The position numbers and the translations under genes are program-made. A model generated the notes under the pieces. It was not told the origin of the DNA. It saw only the letters and a list, made by a program, of their open reading frames with translations, and did no database searches. Positions 3,001 through 11,466 of a stretch of 11,466 bases of DNA are shown here, one piece after another; the first letter of the stretch is position 1; each line of letters starts with the position of its first letter. Origin of the DNA: Candidatus Omnitrophota bacterium (GTDB taxonomy: Bacteria; Omnitrophota; Gorgyraeia; Zapsychrales; Fredricksoniimonadaceae); NCBI GenBank assembly GCA_037141995.1, contig JBAXBM010000050.1, forward strand, positions 1-11,466, in the 5' to 3' direction.

Positions 3001-3069
3001 ATGAAATATTTTCATGGTTTTCTGCTTTTTTATGTGGCATACTTGTTTCTGGTGGGTTTTATCCAATAG
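3001..3069 (+). promoter_or_regulatory. Conserved intergenic element, copy 1 (shared with 4750-4817); candidate promoter/leader of the SPFH gene pair
   Basis: 3003-3069 aligns with 4753-4817 at roughly 83% identity (hand alignment, one 1-nt indel). It contains an AT-rich hairpin/palindrome ATGAAA-TAT-TTTCAT (3001-3015), a T-rich tract, and TGGCATACTTGTTTCT (3035-3050), a partial match to the sigma54 -24/-12 consensus TGGCAC-N5-TTGCW. There are exactly 17 nt from the end of the element to the ATG in both copies. Confidence 0.5.
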
Positions 3070-3086
3070 ACCAAAAGGACAGATAT

Positions 3087-4067
3087 ATGCAGAATGAACA
3101 GGGATTGATCTTTAAAGGGATATATGAGTTTGAAGATCCGCTTGGCGTTCTTGTTGCCGCTAAGGTTCCGTCGGTTGGTACCTTGGATCTTTATTCCGGG
3201 ACGGCTGTTTTGGTCAAGGCCAATCAGTGCGCGCTGTTTATTTATAACGGCAAGATCGCCGATATTTTGATGCAGGGCTTGCACGAGGTCAAGACCGAGA
3301 ATTTTCCGCTTTTAACGCGGCTGGCCAACTGGCAGTTTGGGTTTGAAAGTCCTCTCCGGTGTGAGGTATGGTTTTTTTCTGGCGCTGTTTACACCAACAG
3401 GCGCTGGGGAACGTCTCAGCCAGTGATCTGTGATTTTCCGGATCACGGGATAGTGCCGGTGAGGGCGTACGGGATCTTTAATGTGGTCATGCGTGATCCC
3501 AATAAATTTTTTATGACGTTGATCGGGACGCGCAATGCGTACGATATAACTGAACTTGAGGGTCTGGTTCAGGCTCAGATCACGGAAATTCTTCCTGCGG
3601 CCATGCATGTTGTCCCGTCACTTCAGGACTTAAACAAGTCACAGACGCTGGTGGCAAAAGAACTGCAGGGGTTGGTCAATAAAACGATCGAGCAATACGG
3701 CATTGAAATTGTGAGCCTGCAGGTGATCTCGATGATCCCGTCGAAAGAGATCATGGAGGCGCTCGATGCCAAGGCGTCCATGAACATCATCGGCAATAAA
3801 CAGGAATATCTGCTTTATAAGGCGGCCAACAGCTTGATCGGGAGTCATGAGGGTGGTCATGCGAAAGGTTCCAGTGATTCCATGCAGTTGATGATGGGGT
3901 TGATGCTCGGGAAAAGCCTCCTGGATGCCAAGGAAAAAGAGCACACCATGCTGCTGAAAACAGAAGAAGCGCCTCCGATGATTGAAACAAGGTCATGTTC
4001 AAAATGTAAAGCTGTTGTCAAAGCCAGCGACAAGTTTTGTGCGTCCTGCGGAACGGAGCTGAAATGA
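3087..4067 (+). CDS. SPFH/Band-7 family protein with C-terminal zinc ribbon (COG4260, Pfam Band_7_1, B. subtilis YdjI-like)
   Basis: 326-codon ORF with SD AAGGA about 8 nt upstream. N-terminal pattern GTAVLVKANQCALFIYNGKIADILMQGLHEVKTENFPLL...GFESPLRCEVWFFS...VRAYGIFNVVMRDPNKFF is typical of the YdjI-like SPFH family. The C-terminus CSKCKAVVKASDKFCASCGTEL is a CxxC...CxxC zinc ribbon. Confidence 0.85.
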   Translation: MQNEQGLIFKGIYEFEDPLGVLVAAKVPSVGTLDLYSGTAVLVKANQCALFIYNGKIADILMQGLHEVKTENFPLLTRLANWQFGFESPLRCEVWFFSGAVYTNRRWGTSQPVICDFPDHGIVPVRAYGIFNVVMRDPNKFFMTLIGTRNAYDITELEGLVQAQITEILPAAMHVVPSLQDLNKSQTLVAKELQGLVNKTIEQYGIEIVSLQVISMIPSKEIMEALDAKASMNIIGNKQEYLLYKAANSLIGSHEGGHAKGSSDSMQLMMGLMLGKSLLDAKEKEHTMLLKTEEAPPMIETRSCSKCKAVVKASDKFCASCGTELK

Positions 4068-4749: not shown

Positions 4750-4817
4750 CCAAAATATTTTTTGGTTTTTTGCCTTTCTATATGGCATACTTCTTTCGGG
4801 TGGATTTTATTCAATAG
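4750..4817 (+). promoter_or_regulatory. Conserved intergenic element, copy 2; candidate promoter/leader of the 703-aa gene
   Basis: Homologous to 3003-3069. Hairpin/palindrome CCAAAA-TATT-TTTTGG (4750-4765), a T-rich tract, and TGGCATACTTCTTTCG (4783-4798). There are 17 nt from the terminal CAATAG to ATG 4835, the same as copy 1. Confidence 0.5.
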
Positions 4818-4834
4818 TCTTAAGGGGGTTAAAG

Positions 4835-6946
4835 ATGTTGGAAAAACTGTATTCATTTGCCGGATTCCGGAAATTGATTTGTTGGTTGATGGCTGTTGTT
4901 TTTTTGACGGGATCAGTGATGCCCTTATATGCGCAGGGTGTGGCCGGCCTTTCATCTTCCGGGATGATGAACGTAAGCCGGACATTCACGCCGCCGATTG
5001 TCAGGGGGATGACGATTGATCCCAAGGATCCGTTTGCTTTTAAGTTTCTGATGGACCGCGGGGATGACAAGGGGTTGTCCCTGGAGGCTCGGACGGCAGT
5101 TTATGAGAAGTTGATCAAATATTTCATGGCGTCATTGGCGGTGCCGGAAGAAGATGTCTGGGTCAACCTTTCTCCCTATGAAGGGGATCGTTTGATCGCA
5201 GATAATTTTGGCATGACCGTTATGGGGCGCGACCTTCTGGAAATGGATTATGCGTTAAAGCGTGTCACGGCATCGTTATTTCATCCTGATCAGGAGCCGG
5301 GGAAGGCGTTCTGGAAGAAGGTTTATCAGGCGGCCTATGAACGTTATGGGACAACGGATGTGCCGGTCGATACGTTCAACAAGGTCTGGATCGTTCCGAG
5401 TGAGGCAAAGGTTTATGAGGACGGCAATTCTGTTATTCTGGTGAAAAGCCATCTCAAGGTCATGCTGGAGCAGGATTATTTGGCGCAGAAAAAGAATGCC
5501 GCGGTACACCCCGATAACAAGAATGATAAAGATTCCCAGTTTTCCCGCGATATTGTGCGTGAAGTCATGATTCCTATTCTTGAAAAAGAAGTCAATGACG
5601 GCGAAAATTTTGCAGTGTTACGTCAGATCACCGCATCGCTGATCCTTGCCACCTGGTATAAGAAAGCCTGGAAAGATGTTTTGTTGAACCAGGGATATAC
5701 GGATCATTCCAAGGTCAAAGGCGTTGACCAGGATCCTGCTAATAACCAGATTATCTACAACCAATATGTGGAAGCATTCAAGCAGGGCGCTGTGAATCTG
5801 GTCCGTGAAGAATATGATACGTTATCGCAGGAAATGATGCCACGGAAATATTTCTCCGGCGGTTACGGCACAAAGATGACAACAGATGATGGGCAGACAA
5901 CGTCTTTACAGCAACGATTAGAAGAAGTATCTCAGTCGCCGATGTTGGATCCAAAGAAAACGGAGTTGGTGGCGGCGTCTTTGATGCCAACGGCAAGAAC
6001 AACAGTTGCCGGGTTATTCCGACCTGTTTCACGCTTGGCGCTTCTTATTGTGTTGTGGACAGGGGCTTTCTTTCAACCAACGACAGCGGCTTTAGCAGAA
6101 TATAGAAGTACACAAAGTTTTACATATACGAACGGTTCTAGAACTCAAAAAATGGAGTTGATTGTTACTGATCCTGGCGTTGTTGTGACAGATGTGTGGG
6201 ATACTCAATCAAAGATGCTACGTGATTTCACGGATACTGTAAATACAGTAATTATAATGTCTAGGAGTAATGAGTTAGGGGCCTTAGATACACTTGGGAA
6301 GCTTGAAGCAAGAGTCAAAGCAGGGAAGGCCTCAGAAGAGGCGATATTGAAGGGGTTGGTTCAAAAGCAATTTGTTGCTTTATTAATGAATGGGAAAAAG
6401 CCTGTTGATATATCTCCGTTTCTTCAAGCGTATACTGATTGTTTGCAAGAGATAGGGCGGGTACGAAAGACTATAGACAACAATAATAAGATACGGGCTT
6501 ATAATGAAGCTGTGGAGCAGAATAATGCTAAAGCACGAGAATTCAATAAAAATCAAGCGAAGTATTCCTCTGTTGTGAAGGGGTATGTTGAGATTTTTAA
6601 TAAGAAGCAACGTGACCCAGTAGAAATGAAAAAATTATCGGTAAGCATAGGTCAACTTCTTGCGCAACCAGATTTGCCTTCAAATTTCAGGGCAACTCTT
6701 CAGCAAATTAAAACATGGATAGATAAGGCGGAGAATGTAAAGAAACCAAAGCTTGTGACAGATAAGAATCTTGGTGGTATTGATTTGAATGCCAATTCTT
6801 TTAACCTTGAGGTTGAATCGCGTAAGGAAGCCAGGGGCTTGGTGTCTCCTGTTTTGGTTGATCTTGTTGCCCTTGAAGGCTTGAGCCCACGGATATTGTC
6901 CGTCACGTCCGCCAGTGAATATGTAAAGATGTTTTCAGGAAAGTAA
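4835..6946 (+). CDS. Large secreted or membrane-associated protein of unknown function, with an N-terminal signal peptide and an internal hydrophobic segment
   Basis: 703-codon ORF with SD AAGGGGG 6-7 nt upstream. The N-terminus MLEKLYSFAGFRKLICWLMAVVFLTGSVMPLYAQG looks like a Sec signal peptide. A second signal-peptide-like segment lies at aa 384-421. The C-terminal third is Lys/Asn/Gln-rich and looks coiled-coil-like. No family recognised. Confidence 0.8.
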   Translation: MLEKLYSFAGFRKLICWLMAVVFLTGSVMPLYAQGVAGLSSSGMMNVSRTFTPPIVRGMTIDPKDPFAFKFLMDRGDDKGLSLEARTAVYEKLIKYFMASLAVPEEDVWVNLSPYEGDRLIADNFGMTVMGRDLLEMDYALKRVTASLFHPDQEPGKAFWKKVYQAAYERYGTTDVPVDTFNKVWIVPSEAKVYEDGNSVILVKSHLKVMLEQDYLAQKKNAAVHPDNKNDKDSQFSRDIVREVMIPILEKEVNDGENFAVLRQITASLILATWYKKAWKDVLLNQGYTDHSKVKGVDQDPANNQIIYNQYVEAFKQGAVNLVREEYDTLSQEMMPRKYFSGGYGTKMTTDDGQTTSLQQRLEEVSQSPMLDPKKTELVAASLMPTARTTVAGLFRPVSRLALLIVLWTGAFFQPTTAALAEYRSTQSFTYTNGSRTQKMELIVTDPGVVVTDVWDTQSKMLRDFTDTVNTVIIMSRSNELGALDTLGKLEARVKAGKASEEAILKGLVQKQFVALLMNGKKPVDISPFLQAYTDCLQEIGRVRKTIDNNNKIRAYNEAVEQNNAKAREFNKNQAKYSSVVKGYVEIFNKKQRDPVEMKKLSVSIGQLLAQPDLPSNFRATLQQIKTWIDKAENVKKPKLVTDKNLGGIDLNANSFNLEVESRKEARGLVSPVLVDLVALEGLSPRILSVTSASEYVKMFSGK

Positions 6947-6971: not shown

Positions 6972-6999
6972 TCGACAAAATCACAATCAACCTTATAAT
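6972..6999 (+). promoter_or_regulatory. Sigma70-like promoter candidate upstream of ygiQ
   Basis: -35 TCGACA (6972-6977, 5/6 match), 16-nt spacer, perfect -10 TATAAT (6994-6999). The predicted start near 7006 would put the 7053-7181 element in a ~175-nt leader. Confidence 0.4.
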
Positions 7000-7052
7000 G
7001 GCGCTGTTCAGGCGGGATTAATGGCTGGCGGCGCTATGAGAAAATCGTAGAT

Positions 7053-7181
7053 GTTTAGCGCCTTGTGTGCTCGCCGCGCCGAGCGCCGAGTGCTTTTTCG
7101 CCTGGAACGAGGGGGTTTATCCCCCGAGAGAAGCCGAAAGAGTGGCGCGGTATGGCAGGCGAGAAATCGAATGCGCTAAAC
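7053..7181 (+). repeat. 129-nt structured intergenic element, copy A (candidate cis-regulatory or REP-like structured RNA; family not recognised)
   Basis: About 82% identical to 8965-9095. Five nested stems: P1 7053-7061/7173-7181, P2 7070-7075/7158-7163, P3 7076-7080/7144-7148, P4 7093-7100/7135-7142, P5 7111-7115/7121-7125. Four compensatory changes relative to copy B. Confidence 0.7.
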
Positions 7182-8960
7182 ATGCATAAAAAAACTTCGT
7201 TTCTTCCCATGTATCTTGATGAGATGGCGGCTCGGGGGTGGGGTGAGCTGGACGTTATTATCATCAGCGGCGATGCGTATGTGGATCATCCTTCCTACGG
7301 CACGGCATTGATCGGGCGTCTCCTGGAAAGCAAGGGTTATCGCGTGGGTATTATCGCCCAGCCGGACTGGCGGTCGCTGGATGATTTTACGCGCCTGGGG
7401 CGTCCGCGTTTGTGCGTTTGTGTGACGGCGGGCAATGTGGATTCCATGGTTGCCCATTACACGGCCAACAAGCGGCGGCGGCAGGGGGATGATTTTGCGC
7501 CGGGCGGCAAGGACGGCTTGAGGCCGGATCGTGCGGCGATTGTGTATGCTAATCGTGCTAAGGCGGCATTCAAGGGCCTGCCGGTGATCCTGGGCGGTGT
7601 TGAGGCCAGCATGCGGCGCTTGGCGCATTACGATTACTGGGATGATGCGGTGCGGCGTTCGGTATTGATCGATGCCAAGGCGGACATGATCATTTACGGC
7701 ATGGCAGAGCGGCCTGTTGTGGAAGTGATGGCGCGGCTGGCGCAGGGTGAGGCGATCGCAGCGATCCGTGATGTGCGCGGCACCGTGGTGCGTGTGAAGC
7801 CGGCGGAATTTCCTGCGGGGACGATAGAATTGCCGTCGTTTGAAGATATCAGCCGTGACCCTGAAATTTTTAACCAGGCATTTCGCCTGGCTTATGCGGA
7901 AATGTCGCCGGAAGACGGCAAGCCTTTGGCCCAGCGGCATGCGGATCAGTGTGTGCTGCAATTGCCCCCGGCATTGCCATTGACACCTCAAGAACTTGAC
8001 GCCGGTTATGATCTGGCGTATGCGCGCACATGGCATCCGTCGTATGATGCCTTGGGCGGCGTGAAGGGTTTAGAGACAGTGCGCTGGTCGATCACAGCGG
8101 TGCGCGGCTGTCCCGGGGAGTGTCATTTTTGCGGGATCACGTTCCATCAGGGGCGGATCGTGCAGAGCCGGAGCGTGGCGTCCATTGTGCGGGAAGCTGA
8201 AGGCCTCGCGCGCGACCCGGCGTTTCGGGGGACGATTCAGGATGTGGGCGGGCCGACAGCGAATTTATACGGTGCCAGTTGTGCCAATTGGAATAAAGGC
8301 CGGGTATGCCGCGGCAAGCAGTGCCTGATGCCATCGAAATGCCCGTCGCTGGATCTGGGGTGCCGGGAAGCGGTTTCCTTGTATGAAGCGATACGGCGTG
8401 TGCCGGGCATAAAACATATGTTCGTGCAGAGCGGTTTGAGGTATGATCTCTTGCTCGAACCGGCGGCGCTCGATTATTTCAAGGTGTTATGCCGTTATCA
8501 TGTCAGCGGGCAGATGAAGGTGGCTCCCGAGCATACATCCGACGAGGTTTTAGCGCTCATGAACAAGCCGCCCTATGCGCGGTATGAGGCTTTTGTCCGG
8601 CTTTTCAATGAGATCAATGCGGGGCTTGGCAAGAAGCAGTTTCTGGTGAATTATTTTGTCAGCGCGCATCCCGGGGCAGGGCTTAAGGAAGCGTTTGATT
8701 GTGCGTCAATGCTTTTATCCCGCGGGATGCATCCGGAACAGGTGCAAGATTTTCTGCCTTTACCCATGACGGTATCGGCGTGCATGTATCACACGGGGAA
8801 GCATCCTCTGACGGGCAAGAGTGTTTATGTGCCGCGGAAAGACAATGAACGCGCGATGCAGAGGGCCCTTGTGCAGTCGCAGAATCCTGGTAATGCGCCC
8901 TTGATTGACAAGGCGCTTAATATTTTAGGTAAACAGGGAGTTAAGAAAAAATTTAAATAA
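7182..8960 (+). CDS. ygiQ: YgiQ-family radical SAM protein (UPF0313)
   Basis: The N-terminus KTSFLPMYLDEMAARGWGELDVIIISGDAYVDHPSYGTALIGRLLESKGYRVGIIAQPDW closely parallels E. coli YgiQ (FLPMSREEMDQLGW...VTGDAYVDHPSFG...RVGIIAQPDW). Radical SAM CxxxCxxC motif CPGECHFC at 8109-8132. The start is uncertain. The ORF track begins at 7065, but codons 1-39 are a read-through of the repeat element. ATG 7182 is the first Met after it, and ATG 7152 is an alternative. Confidence 0.88.
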   Translation: MHKKTSFLPMYLDEMAARGWGELDVIIISGDAYVDHPSYGTALIGRLLESKGYRVGIIAQPDWRSLDDFTRLGRPRLCVCVTAGNVDSMVAHYTANKRRRQGDDFAPGGKDGLRPDRAAIVYANRAKAAFKGLPVILGGVEASMRRLAHYDYWDDAVRRSVLIDAKADMIIYGMAERPVVEVMARLAQGEAIAAIRDVRGTVVRVKPAEFPAGTIELPSFEDISRDPEIFNQAFRLAYAEMSPEDGKPLAQRHADQCVLQLPPALPLTPQELDAGYDLAYARTWHPSYDALGGVKGLETVRWSITAVRGCPGECHFCGITFHQGRIVQSRSVASIVREAEGLARDPAFRGTIQDVGGPTANLYGASCANWNKGRVCRGKQCLMPSKCPSLDLGCREAVSLYEAIRRVPGIKHMFVQSGLRYDLLLEPAALDYFKVLCRYHVSGQMKVAPEHTSDEVLALMNKPPYARYEAFVRLFNEINAGLGKKQFLVNYFVSAHPGAGLKEAFDCASMLLSRGMHPEQVQDFLPLPMTVSACMYHTGKHPLTGKSVYVPRKDNERAMQRALVQSQNPGNAPLIDKALNILGKQGVKKKFK

Positions 8961-8964
8961 TGGT

Positions 8965-9095
8965 ATTCAGCGCCCTGTGTTTTCGCCGCGCCAAGCGCCG
9001 AGTGCCTTTCCGCCTGGAACGAGGGGGCCGCAGCCCCCGAGAGAAGCCGGAAGGGTGGCGCGATAAGGCAGGCGAAAAGATCTGATGCGCTGAAC
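8965..9095 (+). repeat. 129-131-nt structured intergenic element, copy B
   Basis: Same architecture as copy A: P1 8966-8973/9087-9094, P2 8980-8987/9071-9078, P3 8988-8992/9057-9061, P4 9005-9012/9048-9055, P5 9023-9027/9034-9038. It starts 5 nt after the ygiQ stop and ends 31 nt before the ABC-F start. Confidence 0.7.
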
Positions 9096-9125
9096 GTGTG
9101 CAATTAAACAAGAGAGGTAATCAGC

Positions 9126-10745
9126 ATGATCACGGTTAATAATGTTACGCTTCAATATGGCCAGCGGAAACTTTTTTCCGGTGTTAATATCAGTTTCTCC
9201 CAGGGTAATTGCTACGGCCTTATCGGCGCCAATGGATCCGGCAAATCAACGTTCCTGAAGATCTTGTCCGGCGAGATTGACTCAACCGAAGGTACAGTGG
9301 CCATTGATCCCGGCAAGCGCATGTCGGTGTTGCGCCAGGATCATTTTGCGTTTGATGAGCAGACGGTTTTGACAACGGTCATCATGGGGCACAAGCGGCT
9401 TTTTGATGTCATGCTGGAAAAAGACGCCATTTATGCCAAGGCAGATTTTACTGATGCCGACGGCATGCGTGTTTCCGAGCTGGAAGCCGAGTTTGCGGAA
9501 ATGGACGGGTGGAACGCGGAATCTGATGCCGGCAAACTCTTGGCGGAACTGGGGATCGCGACCTCAGCGCACACCCAGCAGATGAAACAGCTCGAGGGCG
9601 GCGACAAGGTGCGTGTGCTGTTGGCCCAGGCGCTTTTTGGCAATCCCGATATCCTTCTTCTCGACGAGCCGACGAACCATCTTGATGTCGAGACCTGCAT
9701 GTGGCTGGAGGAATTTCTTTCCCGTTTCGAGAATACGGCGATCGTTGTTTCCCATGACCGCCATTTTCTCGACAATGTGTGCACGCATATCGCCGACATT
9801 GATTTCGGGAAGGTTAAGATTTACTCCGGCAATTATACGTTCTGGTCGGAATCAAGCCGCCTCGCCGCAAAGCAGCGTAGTGAAGAGAATAAGAAGGTCG
9901 AGGACCGCCGCAAGGAATTGCAGGATTTCATCGCACGCTTCAGTTCCAATTTGTCAAAGTCGCGTCAGGCAACAAGCCGTAAAAAGATCCTCGAGAAACT
10001 TGTCATCGAGGACATTGAACCGTCTTCGCGTAAATATCCGTATGTGCATTTTGAGCAGGAACGCGAGGCCGGCAACGACCTCTTGGGGGTGGATGATCTG
10101 GCCAAATCTTTGGACGGGCAGGTCATGTTCAAGAAGTTATCATTTACGATTGAAAAGGGAGACAAGGTGGCTTTTGTGGGATCCAATGATCTGATCAAGA
10201 CGACACTTTTTCAGATTCTCATGGGCGAACTTCCGGCGGATAAAGGGACGTTCAAGTGGGGCTTCTCGACAAAGCGCGCCTATTTCCCGAAAGACAATGC
10301 CGAATATTTCAAGTCTGATCTCAGTGTCGTTGACTGGCTGAGGCAGTATTCCGAAGAGAAGGCCGAAGTTTTTATCCGCGGCTTTTTAGGCAAGATGCTT
10401 TTTACCGGTGAAGAATCCCAGAAACCGGCCAAGGTCCTTTCAGGCGGCGAGAAAGTCCGCTGTATGCTTTCACGCATGATGCTCATGAAGCCCAACGTTG
10501 TGATTCTCGACGAGCCGACCAGTCACCTGGATCTCGAGTCGATCACCGCACTCAATGAGGGGCTGAAGCGCTTTAAGGGCACGATCCTTTTCTCGTCGCA
10601 TGACCATGAGCTGGTGCAGACCGTCGCCAACCGCATCATCGAGATCACGCCGGCGGGCATGATCGACCGTACGGGTACAACGTTTGATGATTATCTGTCC
10701 GATGAACGCGTCAAAACCCTGCGGGCAGAGTTTGCCAGGGTTTAA
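9126..10745 (+). CDS. ybiT: ABC-F family ATPase with two nucleotide-binding domains, YbiT-like
   Basis: 539-codon ORF with SD GAGAGG about 8 nt upstream. NBD1 has Walker A GANGSGKST (9225-9251) and Walker B ILLLDEPTNHLD. A Lys/Arg-rich inter-domain linker (SRFSSNLSKSRQATSRKK) follows. NBD2 has signature LSGGEKVR and Walker B VVILDEPTSHLD. Overall collinear with E. coli YbiT (NVT.Q.G...YGLIGANGSGKSTF.KIL.G...LRQD.FAF.E.TVL.TVIMGHK). Confidence 0.88.
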   Translation: MITVNNVTLQYGQRKLFSGVNISFSQGNCYGLIGANGSGKSTFLKILSGEIDSTEGTVAIDPGKRMSVLRQDHFAFDEQTVLTTVIMGHKRLFDVMLEKDAIYAKADFTDADGMRVSELEAEFAEMDGWNAESDAGKLLAELGIATSAHTQQMKQLEGGDKVRVLLAQALFGNPDILLLDEPTNHLDVETCMWLEEFLSRFENTAIVVSHDRHFLDNVCTHIADIDFGKVKIYSGNYTFWSESSRLAAKQRSEENKKVEDRRKELQDFIARFSSNLSKSRQATSRKKILEKLVIEDIEPSSRKYPYVHFEQEREAGNDLLGVDDLAKSLDGQVMFKKLSFTIEKGDKVAFVGSNDLIKTTLFQILMGELPADKGTFKWGFSTKRAYFPKDNAEYFKSDLSVVDWLRQYSEEKAEVFIRGFLGKMLFTGEESQKPAKVLSGGEKVRCMLSRMMLMKPNVVILDEPTSHLDLESITALNEGLKRFKGTILFSSHDHELVQTVANRIIEITPAGMIDRTGTTFDDYLSDERVKTLRAEFARV

Positions 10746-10749
10746 CTAT

Positions 10750-11466
10750 CTATTTTAGTATTGTTATCAGTTCCTGCGGGGAAACGATGCGGACGAAATC
10801 GACGGCGCGGGGATGCTCGACCGGGCAGACACAATAACAGGGGACGTCAGGATATTCCGTGTGAAAGGCTTTAAGGCCTGTCAGGTCGCGCAGGCCAATA
10901 TGCGGGGTGGATTTGCATTCAATGGCATAGAGGATGGACGCTCCGCGGCTGATCAGCAGGTCAACTTCAGCTCCATTGTTTGTGCGCCAGAAGTTGAATT
11001 TCCAGTCGAGCTGGTGGTATTCATTGAGGTGTGTCAATTCCTGGATAACCCATTGTTCAAACAGTCGGCCTTGTTGGATCGGGTTGTTGTTGTCTCTAAG
11101 GGTTCCCAGGATCGAGCGGGTGACGCCATTATCAAAGAAGTAGAATTTCGGGCTATGGCTCATCCTTTGACGCAGGCTTTTCAAATAAGGGAAAATAAAA
11201 AAGCCGATGAGGGTATCTTCAAGGATGGCGTAATATTCCCGGACCGTTGATAATGAAACCTGGCATTCCCGGGAGACGGAAGAAAAATTGATCTGTTGGG
11301 CAAATTGAGCCGCCGCAATATCAAGAAAATTCTGAAACCCGTTAAGGTTTCGCACCAAAGCTTCGGCTTTGATTTCTTCGCTGAGGTAGGCAACGGTGTA
11401 GGCGCGCAGGAGATCTTGTGCCTGGTCCATTTTATTTTCCAGTAGCAGGCTGTAAATTCTTGGCAT
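10750..11466 (-). CDS. AAA+/DUF4143 ATPase paralogue, C-terminal ~238 aa only (the N-terminal ATPase domain probably lies beyond the window edge)
   Basis: The ORF runs to the window edge. YLSEEIKAEALVRNLNGFQNFLDIAAAQFAQQINFSSVSRECQVSLSTVREYYAILEDTLIGFF is the typical DUF4143 region. The C-terminal EVDLLI...AIECKST (10912-10968) repeats the D...E-x-K motif seen in the 934-2130 protein. No Walker A is visible, consistent with 5' truncation by the window. Confidence 0.82.
   Translation of the reverse strand: MPRIYSLLLENKMDQAQDLLRAYTVAYLSEEIKAEALVRNLNGFQNFLDIAAAQFAQQINFSSVSRECQVSLSTVREYYAILEDTLIGFFIFPYLKSLRQRMSHSPKFYFFDNGVTRSILGTLRDNNNPIQQGRLFEQWVIQELTHLNEYHQLDWKFNFWRTNNGAEVDLLISRGASILYAIECKSTPHIGLRDLTGLKAFHTEYPDVPCYCVCPVEHPRAVDFVRIVSPQELITILK

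Follow-up and report, generated by a model that had tools for sequence, protein, structure and literature searches.

Hairpin repeats beside ygiQ in an Omnitrophota genome very probably belong to an apparently undescribed MITE family

Results

Two related hairpins flank ygiQ

The window (the whole stretch of DNA analysed here, 11,466 nucleotides from a Candidatus Omnitrophota bacterium) contains ygiQ at 7182-8960 (+), a frame of 592 aa with Radical_SAM_N and DUF3362 domains whose start ATG is proposed, followed by the gene of an ABC-F ATPase at 9126-10745 (+). A sigma-70-like promoter for ygiQ lies at 6972-6999 (+), with TCGACA and TATAAT separated by a 16-nt spacer (11 of 12 consensus positions), and it is conserved in a related contig, L040. 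At its two ends, on opposite strands, the window has genes for paralogous ATPases of the DUF4143 family (934-2130, +, and 10750-11466, -); the first also has an AAA_14 domain, and the second runs past the window end. Elsewhere in the window, two upstream regions (3010-3078 and 4758-4826) share about 80% identity across about 70-80 nt, and each ends just before a gene start: that of the gene at 3087, which encodes an SPFH/Band 7 protein with a zinc ribbon, and that of the gene at 4835, whose 703-aa product has no Pfam match. The motif TGGCATACTT(G/C)TTTC, which resembles a sigma-54 promoter, is present in both, and the two regions may represent a shared promoter or operator.

Two segments on either side of ygiQ, 7053-7181 (copy A) and 8965-9095 (copy B), had been described in a first-pass annotation as copies of a structured element of ~129 nt that align end to end and share one fold on the + strand. 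Both observations were borne out. From P1 to P1 the copies are 83% identical (89% in ungapped blocks and in the wider alignment), and each forms a nested hairpin of stems P1 to P5. The + strand folds have energies of -62.2 kcal/mol for copy A (z = -4.7 against dinucleotide shuffles) and -69.4 kcal/mol for copy B (z = -5.3, likewise). The - strand folds almost equally well (-54.1 and -64.3 kcal/mol, z about -4). We also recovered, at the positions claimed, the four compensatory stem changes that distinguish the copies: T7056-A7178 to C8968-G9092 in P1 (alignment columns 10/138), C7070-G7163 to T8982-A9076 in P2 (columns 27/122), and two pairs in P4 (columns 51/100 and 55/96). The internal loop around P5 is the same in both copies and the apical loop differs, again as described. 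The reported lack of a known RNA family was confirmed as well, since a search of Rfam 15 gave no match at gathering thresholds and a permissive search returned noise (E above 1), its sole match being ClpQY_promoter at E about 1-3.

The size of the unit, in contrast, had to be revised. The hairpin span was correctly delimited, but copy-to-copy similarity reaches 6 nt past P1 on each side. From family alignments, a matrix of target-site duplication (TSD) offsets and an alignment with empty sites, we placed copy A at 7047-7187 (+), a unit of 141 nt with termini GTAGAT...ATGCAT around hairpin 7053-7181. Copy B occupies 8959-9101 (+), 143 nt, with termini AATGGT...GTGTGC around hairpin 8965-9095. 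Neither copy contains a transposase gene.

The repeats form a family in Omnitrophota

We scanned one genome per species with the two halves of the conserved internal loop as patterns. Of the 25 loci found, 13 hold full-length copies (14 copies in all), and all 13 come from Candidatus Omnitrophica MAGs; the other 12 are chance matches whose flanks have no similarity. A scan of metagenomes returned the same AM4_bin-704 loci again together with four contigs of SESG01. The SESG01 assembly derives from the window's own organism: its contig L027 matches window positions 7193-11466 with one mismatch. At least 18 distinct full copies are thus present across four Omnitrophota genomes or metagenomes, and the alignment used below comprises 18. 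At least 11 of them are on different contigs of AM4_bin-704, 5 belong to the window organism and SESG01, and Umea1p4_bin-199 and MJ-2014-D6_bin-075 contribute one each.

L027, an independent assembly, begins immediately after copy A, which marks the repeat as the point where assembly was interrupted. Over 4,274 nt it differs from the window at one position only, in copy B (window 8977, G vs T), and this mismatch may come from reads of other copies.

Family members are about 135-146 nt long and fall into two subfamilies, neither of which is restricted to one genome. Subfamily A includes copy A together with L028, L037, L039 and L014, and subfamily B includes copy B, the AM4_bin-704 copies and L015. 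The identity of copy B to the AM4_bin-704 copies is 89% on average (mostly 89-92%, range 86-92%), compared with only 83% to copy A. The ygiQ DNA of the window is 72-80% identical to that of three orthologous loci with empty sites, a figure that serves as a rough yardstick of divergence only, these three loci being without the element.

Two products of decay were found. The copy at L037:2657-2789 is one 7-nt GCGCCGA unit short in the tandem GCGCC repeat of its 5' arm, as replication slippage could produce, and an internally deleted MITE remnant at L035:9270-9330 has lost the centre, retaining the 3' third as well as the 5' end (CATGTT). When the collected loci were searched with nhmmer for copies with an altered central loop, only the pattern-selected copies and one deleted remnant were returned. 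Among viral contigs, one pattern gave 20 GC-rich chance matches and the other none, so that no real copy was seen there, and blastn found no match in plasmids or in 5,426 E. coli genomes.

Individual copies lie in varied surroundings. One (L025:6278-6408) ends about 15 nt upstream of a tRNA-Val gene (6424-6497). In L006 (the same as L026), inverted copies at 3634-3765 (+) and 5140-5271 (-) flank a single ORF of about 415 aa, and the GTG at the terminus of the first copy is in the frame of this ORF; the two copies may have been inserted independently or may form a composite mobile unit.

Ends, target-site duplications and orientation

The ends of the repeat are terminal inverted repeats (TIRs), 5' G-N-N-CAT-GTTTAGCGCC and 3' GGCGCTAAAC-NTG-N-N-C, with the consensus GTTCAT-GTTTAGCGCC ... 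GGCGCTAAAC-NTGTNC; the ends can also be given as GNNCATGTTTAGCGCC. Nearly the whole interior is an imperfect palindrome, and the element as a whole is a fold-back. In many MITEs the termini are better conserved than the interior. Here the interior is the better conserved part, a comparison biased by the 22 interior columns that the search patterns had fixed.

We compared the 8-mers of both flanks at every pair of offsets in the 18 copies. The resulting matrix has a single sharp peak, located 6 nt outside P1 on both sides, where matches occupy 93 of 144 positions (background 43 +/- 10). At this offset the flanking 8-mers agree in at least 6 of 8 positions in 11 of the 18 copies. In the control, which paired the left flank of one copy with the right flank of another, 1.3% of pairs reached 6/8. 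The duplication is perfect (8/8) in L037 (CATTCTTT) and also in L005 once shifted by 1 nt (TCTTGATT); in 7 of the 18 copies it is weak or unrecognisable. Target sites are AT-rich. In the window, copy A is flanked by AGAAAATC (7039-7046) and AAAAAAAC (7188-7195), which match at 6 of 8 positions, and copy B by ATTTAAAT (8951-8958) and AATTAAAC (9102-9109), both pairs placed by the offset matrix and the empty-site alignment.

Between co-directional genes, six copies are in sense and five in antisense orientation, and further copies lie between convergent or divergent genes. The genes adjoining the copies are unrelated and show no association with a gene class. One copy between divergent genes (L015:1793-1946), whose TSD is weak (4/8), has ORFs of 520 and 241 aa in frame with the ATGs of both its termini. 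Across the family, there was no clear enrichment of the terminal NTG as a recurrent start codon, long outward ORFs being in frame 0 at about 6 ends and in the other two frames combined at about 7.

An imperfect intergenic palindrome of about 130 nt, present in two same-orientation copies around one gene of the window, could in principle belong to another palindromic class, namely REP/BIME repeats mobilised by a RAYT transposase, integron attC sites, or ERIC. REPs are 20-40 nt long, and substrates of HUH transposases, REPs included, leave no 8-bp duplications; the unit described here has 141 nt and an 8-bp TSD. Sites of the attC type keep one orientation within cassette arrays, whereas the present copies occur in both orientations, dispersed among housekeeping genes on many contigs. 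We therefore rejected REP and attC for reasons of orientation, size and TSD, and, given the blastn result in E. coli noted above, the repeat is not ERIC. Taken as a group, these classes have a negligible chance of providing the explanation.

The insertion sites are empty in relatives

Homologues of YgiQ that are 86%, 74% and 73% identical to that of the window were traced to contigs L040/L041, L042/L043 and L044-L046. At all three orthologous ygiQ loci, both insertion sites are empty and each target 8-mer is present once. There ygiQ has a short leader that lacks the repeat and a start codon of its own (in L040 also its own Shine-Dalgarno sequence), and ygiQ and the ABC-F gene overlap by 14 nt. 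At site A, L040 reads AAAAAATC once and L042 and L044 read AAAAAAAC once, where the window has AGAAAATC and AAAAAAAC. At site B, L042 reads ATTTAAAC once, and the insert in the window is flanked by ATTTAAAT and AATTAAAC. At both sites, the window sequence minus the element and minus one TSD is the sequence of the relatives. The empty-site comparison is confined to the two window copies because no orthology between MITE-bearing loci of different MAGs was found.

We considered whether the two copies had carried ygiQ between them as a composite transposon. This was rejected, because each copy has its own TSD and the order of ygiQ and the ABC-F gene is ancestral; ygiQ was not moved as a composite unit.

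The first-pass annotation had favoured a dedicated structured cis-regulatory RNA of the + strand, of a riboswitch or leader type, as a control on translation of the gene that follows. Several observations fit such an RNA: the stable fold (z about -5), the covarying pairs described below, two G.U pairs fixed on the + strand, and the end of copy A at the ygiQ ATG, with the A and U of this codon paired in an extended stem. However, the TSDs that flank the element, the presence of copies in both orientations relative to transcription beside unrelated genes, and the orthologous ygiQ leaders that use their own start without the element all speak against it, as do the lack of an Rfam match and the position of copy B, which lies downstream of ygiQ and 24 nt before the ribosome-binding site of the ABC-F gene. 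The empty sites and the mixed orientation largely refute a dedicated RNA, and we give this explanation very little credence. The annotation had itself named a MITE- or REP-type repeat as the finding that would count against an RNA, and the repeats are of that kind.

Small size (under about 400 bp), TIRs, a TSD of fixed length, many dispersed copies in either orientation and filled versus empty sites were all found for the repeat. The published definition of bacterial MITEs comprises small size, TIRs, direct repeats, a stable stem-loop and filled/empty sites (PMC3184786; PMC10969869). It is therefore very probable that the hairpin repeats are a MITE family of Omnitrophota, apparently undescribed, within a well-known class of elements, and that the structure at 7053-7181 and 8965-9095 is that of a mobile fold-back and not of a regulatory RNA with a dedicated function.

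Consequences for ygiQ and the ABC-F gene

Copy A was inserted after the 11th base (codon 3) of the ancestral ygiQ frame. With the insert removed, the start of ygiQ reads ATGAGAAAATCTTCGTTTCTTCCCATG, and the same place in L040 reads ATGAAAAAATCTTCCTTTCTTCCCATG. The ancestral start codon, ATG 7036-7038, now opens a stub (7036-7050, +) encoding MRKS*, and its stop codon, TAG 7048-7050, lies in the MITE terminus. ATG 7182, in turn, consists of the first three bases of the 3' terminal hexamer of the element and is thus part of the repeat itself. The ygiQ frame is also open back through the element, with an in-frame ATG at 7152 inside the MITE. Most likely, the present ygiQ start is an ATG that the element contributed, with 7182 and 7152 as the candidates. 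The database protein P0001 (602 aa), which is the same as YgiQ of the window, is called from ATG 7152, adding 10 residues encoded by the element; this N-terminal extension may be real or an artefact of gene calling.

That copy A lies next to the ygiQ start codon and within the predicted ygiQ transcript was stated correctly in the annotation: given the promoter at 6972-6999, the copy would fall inside the ygiQ mRNA. In the predicted fold of this leader, the A and U of ATG 7182 are paired in the extended P1. The proposal that the fold gates ygiQ translation did not hold, as ATG 7182 lies in the terminus of the element; it abuts the hairpin because the element was inserted into the coding start of ygiQ and its own terminus carries an ATG, not through evolution towards translational control.

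Copy B was inserted into the 14-nt overlap of ygiQ and the ABC-F gene and has split the two genes. The present ygiQ stop codon, TAA 8958-8960, is made of the last base of the left TSD (T) and the first two bases of the element (AA), and roughly ten codons at the end of ygiQ have been lost. Downstream of the right TSD of copy B, the ribosome-binding site of the ABC-F gene (AAGAGAGG) is retained. On the basis of the predicted promoter and gene order, both copies probably lie within a ygiQ/ABC-F transcript, with their hairpins present as RNA. Such hairpin RNA would be a by-product of insertion and not a dedicated riboregulator.

Compensated pairing in the family

The annotation had called for covariation to be examined in more copies, and the larger set bore out its expectation of covariation. 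Standard pairs make up 98.2% of cells in the 18-copy alignment, and 8 of the 38 pairs have changed on both sides compared to an expected 3.9, a number reached in 0 of 500 shuffles. The signal was lost when the 3' partners were slid by 1-3 columns. Compensated stem changes are therefore commoner than neutral drift predicts, and some force keeps the pairing.

Most of the compensated changes mark subfamilies (for example both P4 pairs, with 13 C-G vs 5 U-A) or arose in source lineages. One-sided stem changes private to single copies, on the other hand, comprise 6 G.U, 9 A.C (which is G.U on the other strand) and 3 others. These private changes show no bias for pairing or strand. From these two patterns we infer that pairing is maintained in lineages that are still propagating, whereas individual copies, once inserted, would drift neutrally. 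Selection on the fold-back, or template-switch correction within the quasi-palindrome, could be what keeps it.

The same counts bear on the argument that G.U pairs identify a + strand RNA. The 6 G.U and 9 A.C private changes prefer neither strand, in particular not pairing on the + strand as a dedicated RNA would suggest, and we dropped strand assignment by G.U pairs as uninformative. Two G.U pairs are fixed on the + strand throughout the family, and the strand argument comes down to these two. More generally, covariation does not tell a cis-regulatory RNA from a fold-back transposon.

The fold-back pairing may nevertheless have a role at the RNA level, and the element could be mobile and yet have been co-opted, its hairpin serving the host in mRNA stabilisation or processing, attenuation or translation restart, or binding a protein through its purine-rich loop. 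Pairing compensated beyond shuffle expectation would agree with this, as would the placement of both window copies, probably in one transcription unit after a conserved promoter. Repeats of the ERIC, Correia and bcr1 types have documented functions of this sort (PMC3184786). All 18 copies have the same internal loop around P5, an invariance that is biased because the search patterns required this loop. Against co-option, orientation is random and mutations in single copies look neutral. We regard a MITE with an acquired host function as rather improbable overall. Co-option of the hairpin as RNA, either for translation restart in the ygiQ leader or for protein binding at the G.A-rich loop, is unlikely.

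A more specific version can be proposed from the leader fold. The hairpin would bring the stub stop codon TAG 7048-7050 beside ATG 7182, across the base of P1, and ribosomes ending on the stub might restart, or shunt across the 130-nt hairpin. By extension, the whole family might be a portable translation-restart cassette, with the tandem G.A loop beside P5 as a protein-binding RNA module; we offer this as speculation to which we attach only a slight probability.

Discussion

The evidence is best accounted for by a MITE family. A transposase encoded elsewhere would move the element in trans, making staggered cuts 8 bp apart in AT-rich targets, and repair would then leave the 8-bp direct repeats. 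Compensated changes would have come to separate the subfamilies or source lineages, and copies, once inserted, would drift. At the ygiQ locus, insertion of copy A would have left the original ATG to open a 4-codon stub, with the ygiQ start taken over by an ATG of the element, and insertion of copy B would have shortened ygiQ, given it a new stop codon and broken the overlap with the ABC-F gene. In about 170 kb of Omnitrophota DNA, we found no autonomous IS with matching ends, no solitary terminal repeat and no larger element.

In Correia elements, the target duplication is a TA dinucleotide and an IHF site is present. The Omnitrophota element, in contrast, duplicates 8 bp, has no sequence similarity to Correia/NEMIS and occurs in a different host phylum. 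It is nevertheless like these repeats of Neisseria in being a non-coding fold-back with TIRs, of about 100-160 bp in their case, that is present in many copies and in either orientation (PMC3184786). Correia/NEMIS elements also lie near gene boundaries, as do the copies here, and are co-transcribed with their neighbours as long hairpins (PMC3184786), which is predicted for the present element as well. ERIC is likewise an imperfect palindrome, of about 127 bp, in transcribed intergenic regions, transcription again being a prediction for the present element; the two differ in host phylum and termini, and no similarity was found in the 5,426 E. coli genomes.

Closer parallels in behaviour can be drawn with other repeats. 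The bcr1 element of the Bacillus cereus group is mobile, about 150 bp long and flanked by direct repeats, and it shows a strain-variable distribution and compensatory changes that preserve its predicted structure (PMC3184786). It has 5-bp direct repeats and a cruciform-like fold of two hairpins, however, whereas the Omnitrophota element has 8 bp and a single nested hairpin. Rickettsia palindromic elements insert into coding sequences and leave the gene intact, so that an ORF acquires a 5' or 3' end derived from the repeat (PMC3184786). Here, insertion at codon 4 was apparently rescued by a candidate ATG in the terminus and not by in-frame read-through. For Nezha of cyanobacteria, mobility was recognised, as here, from filled and empty sites in related genomes (PMC3184786), but its sequence is unrelated, its host differs, and its partner IS is known. 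Both compensatory changes and ORF fusions are documented for bacterial MITE-type repeats in general (PMC3184786; PMC10969869).

For the reading of genomes, the result removes a false lead: the covarying "new RNA motif" is in all probability the fold-back of a transposon, and compensated stems alone are insufficient to identify a functional RNA. Repeats of this kind also break assemblies and mislead gene callers, as with the database protein that starts inside the element.

To our knowledge, the mobile elements of Omnitrophota have been little studied, and a limited check of full-text literature found no earlier description of a MITE in Omnitrophica. The repeats thus add, for this uncultured phylum, a MITE family that duplicates 8 bp of its target and is apparently undescribed. 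At the ygiQ locus, copy B has separated a translationally coupled gene pair, ygiQ and the ABC-F gene. Copy A offers a natural case of gene repair, in which a conserved radical-SAM gene lost its original start and apparently gained a new one, an ATG from the terminus of the element.
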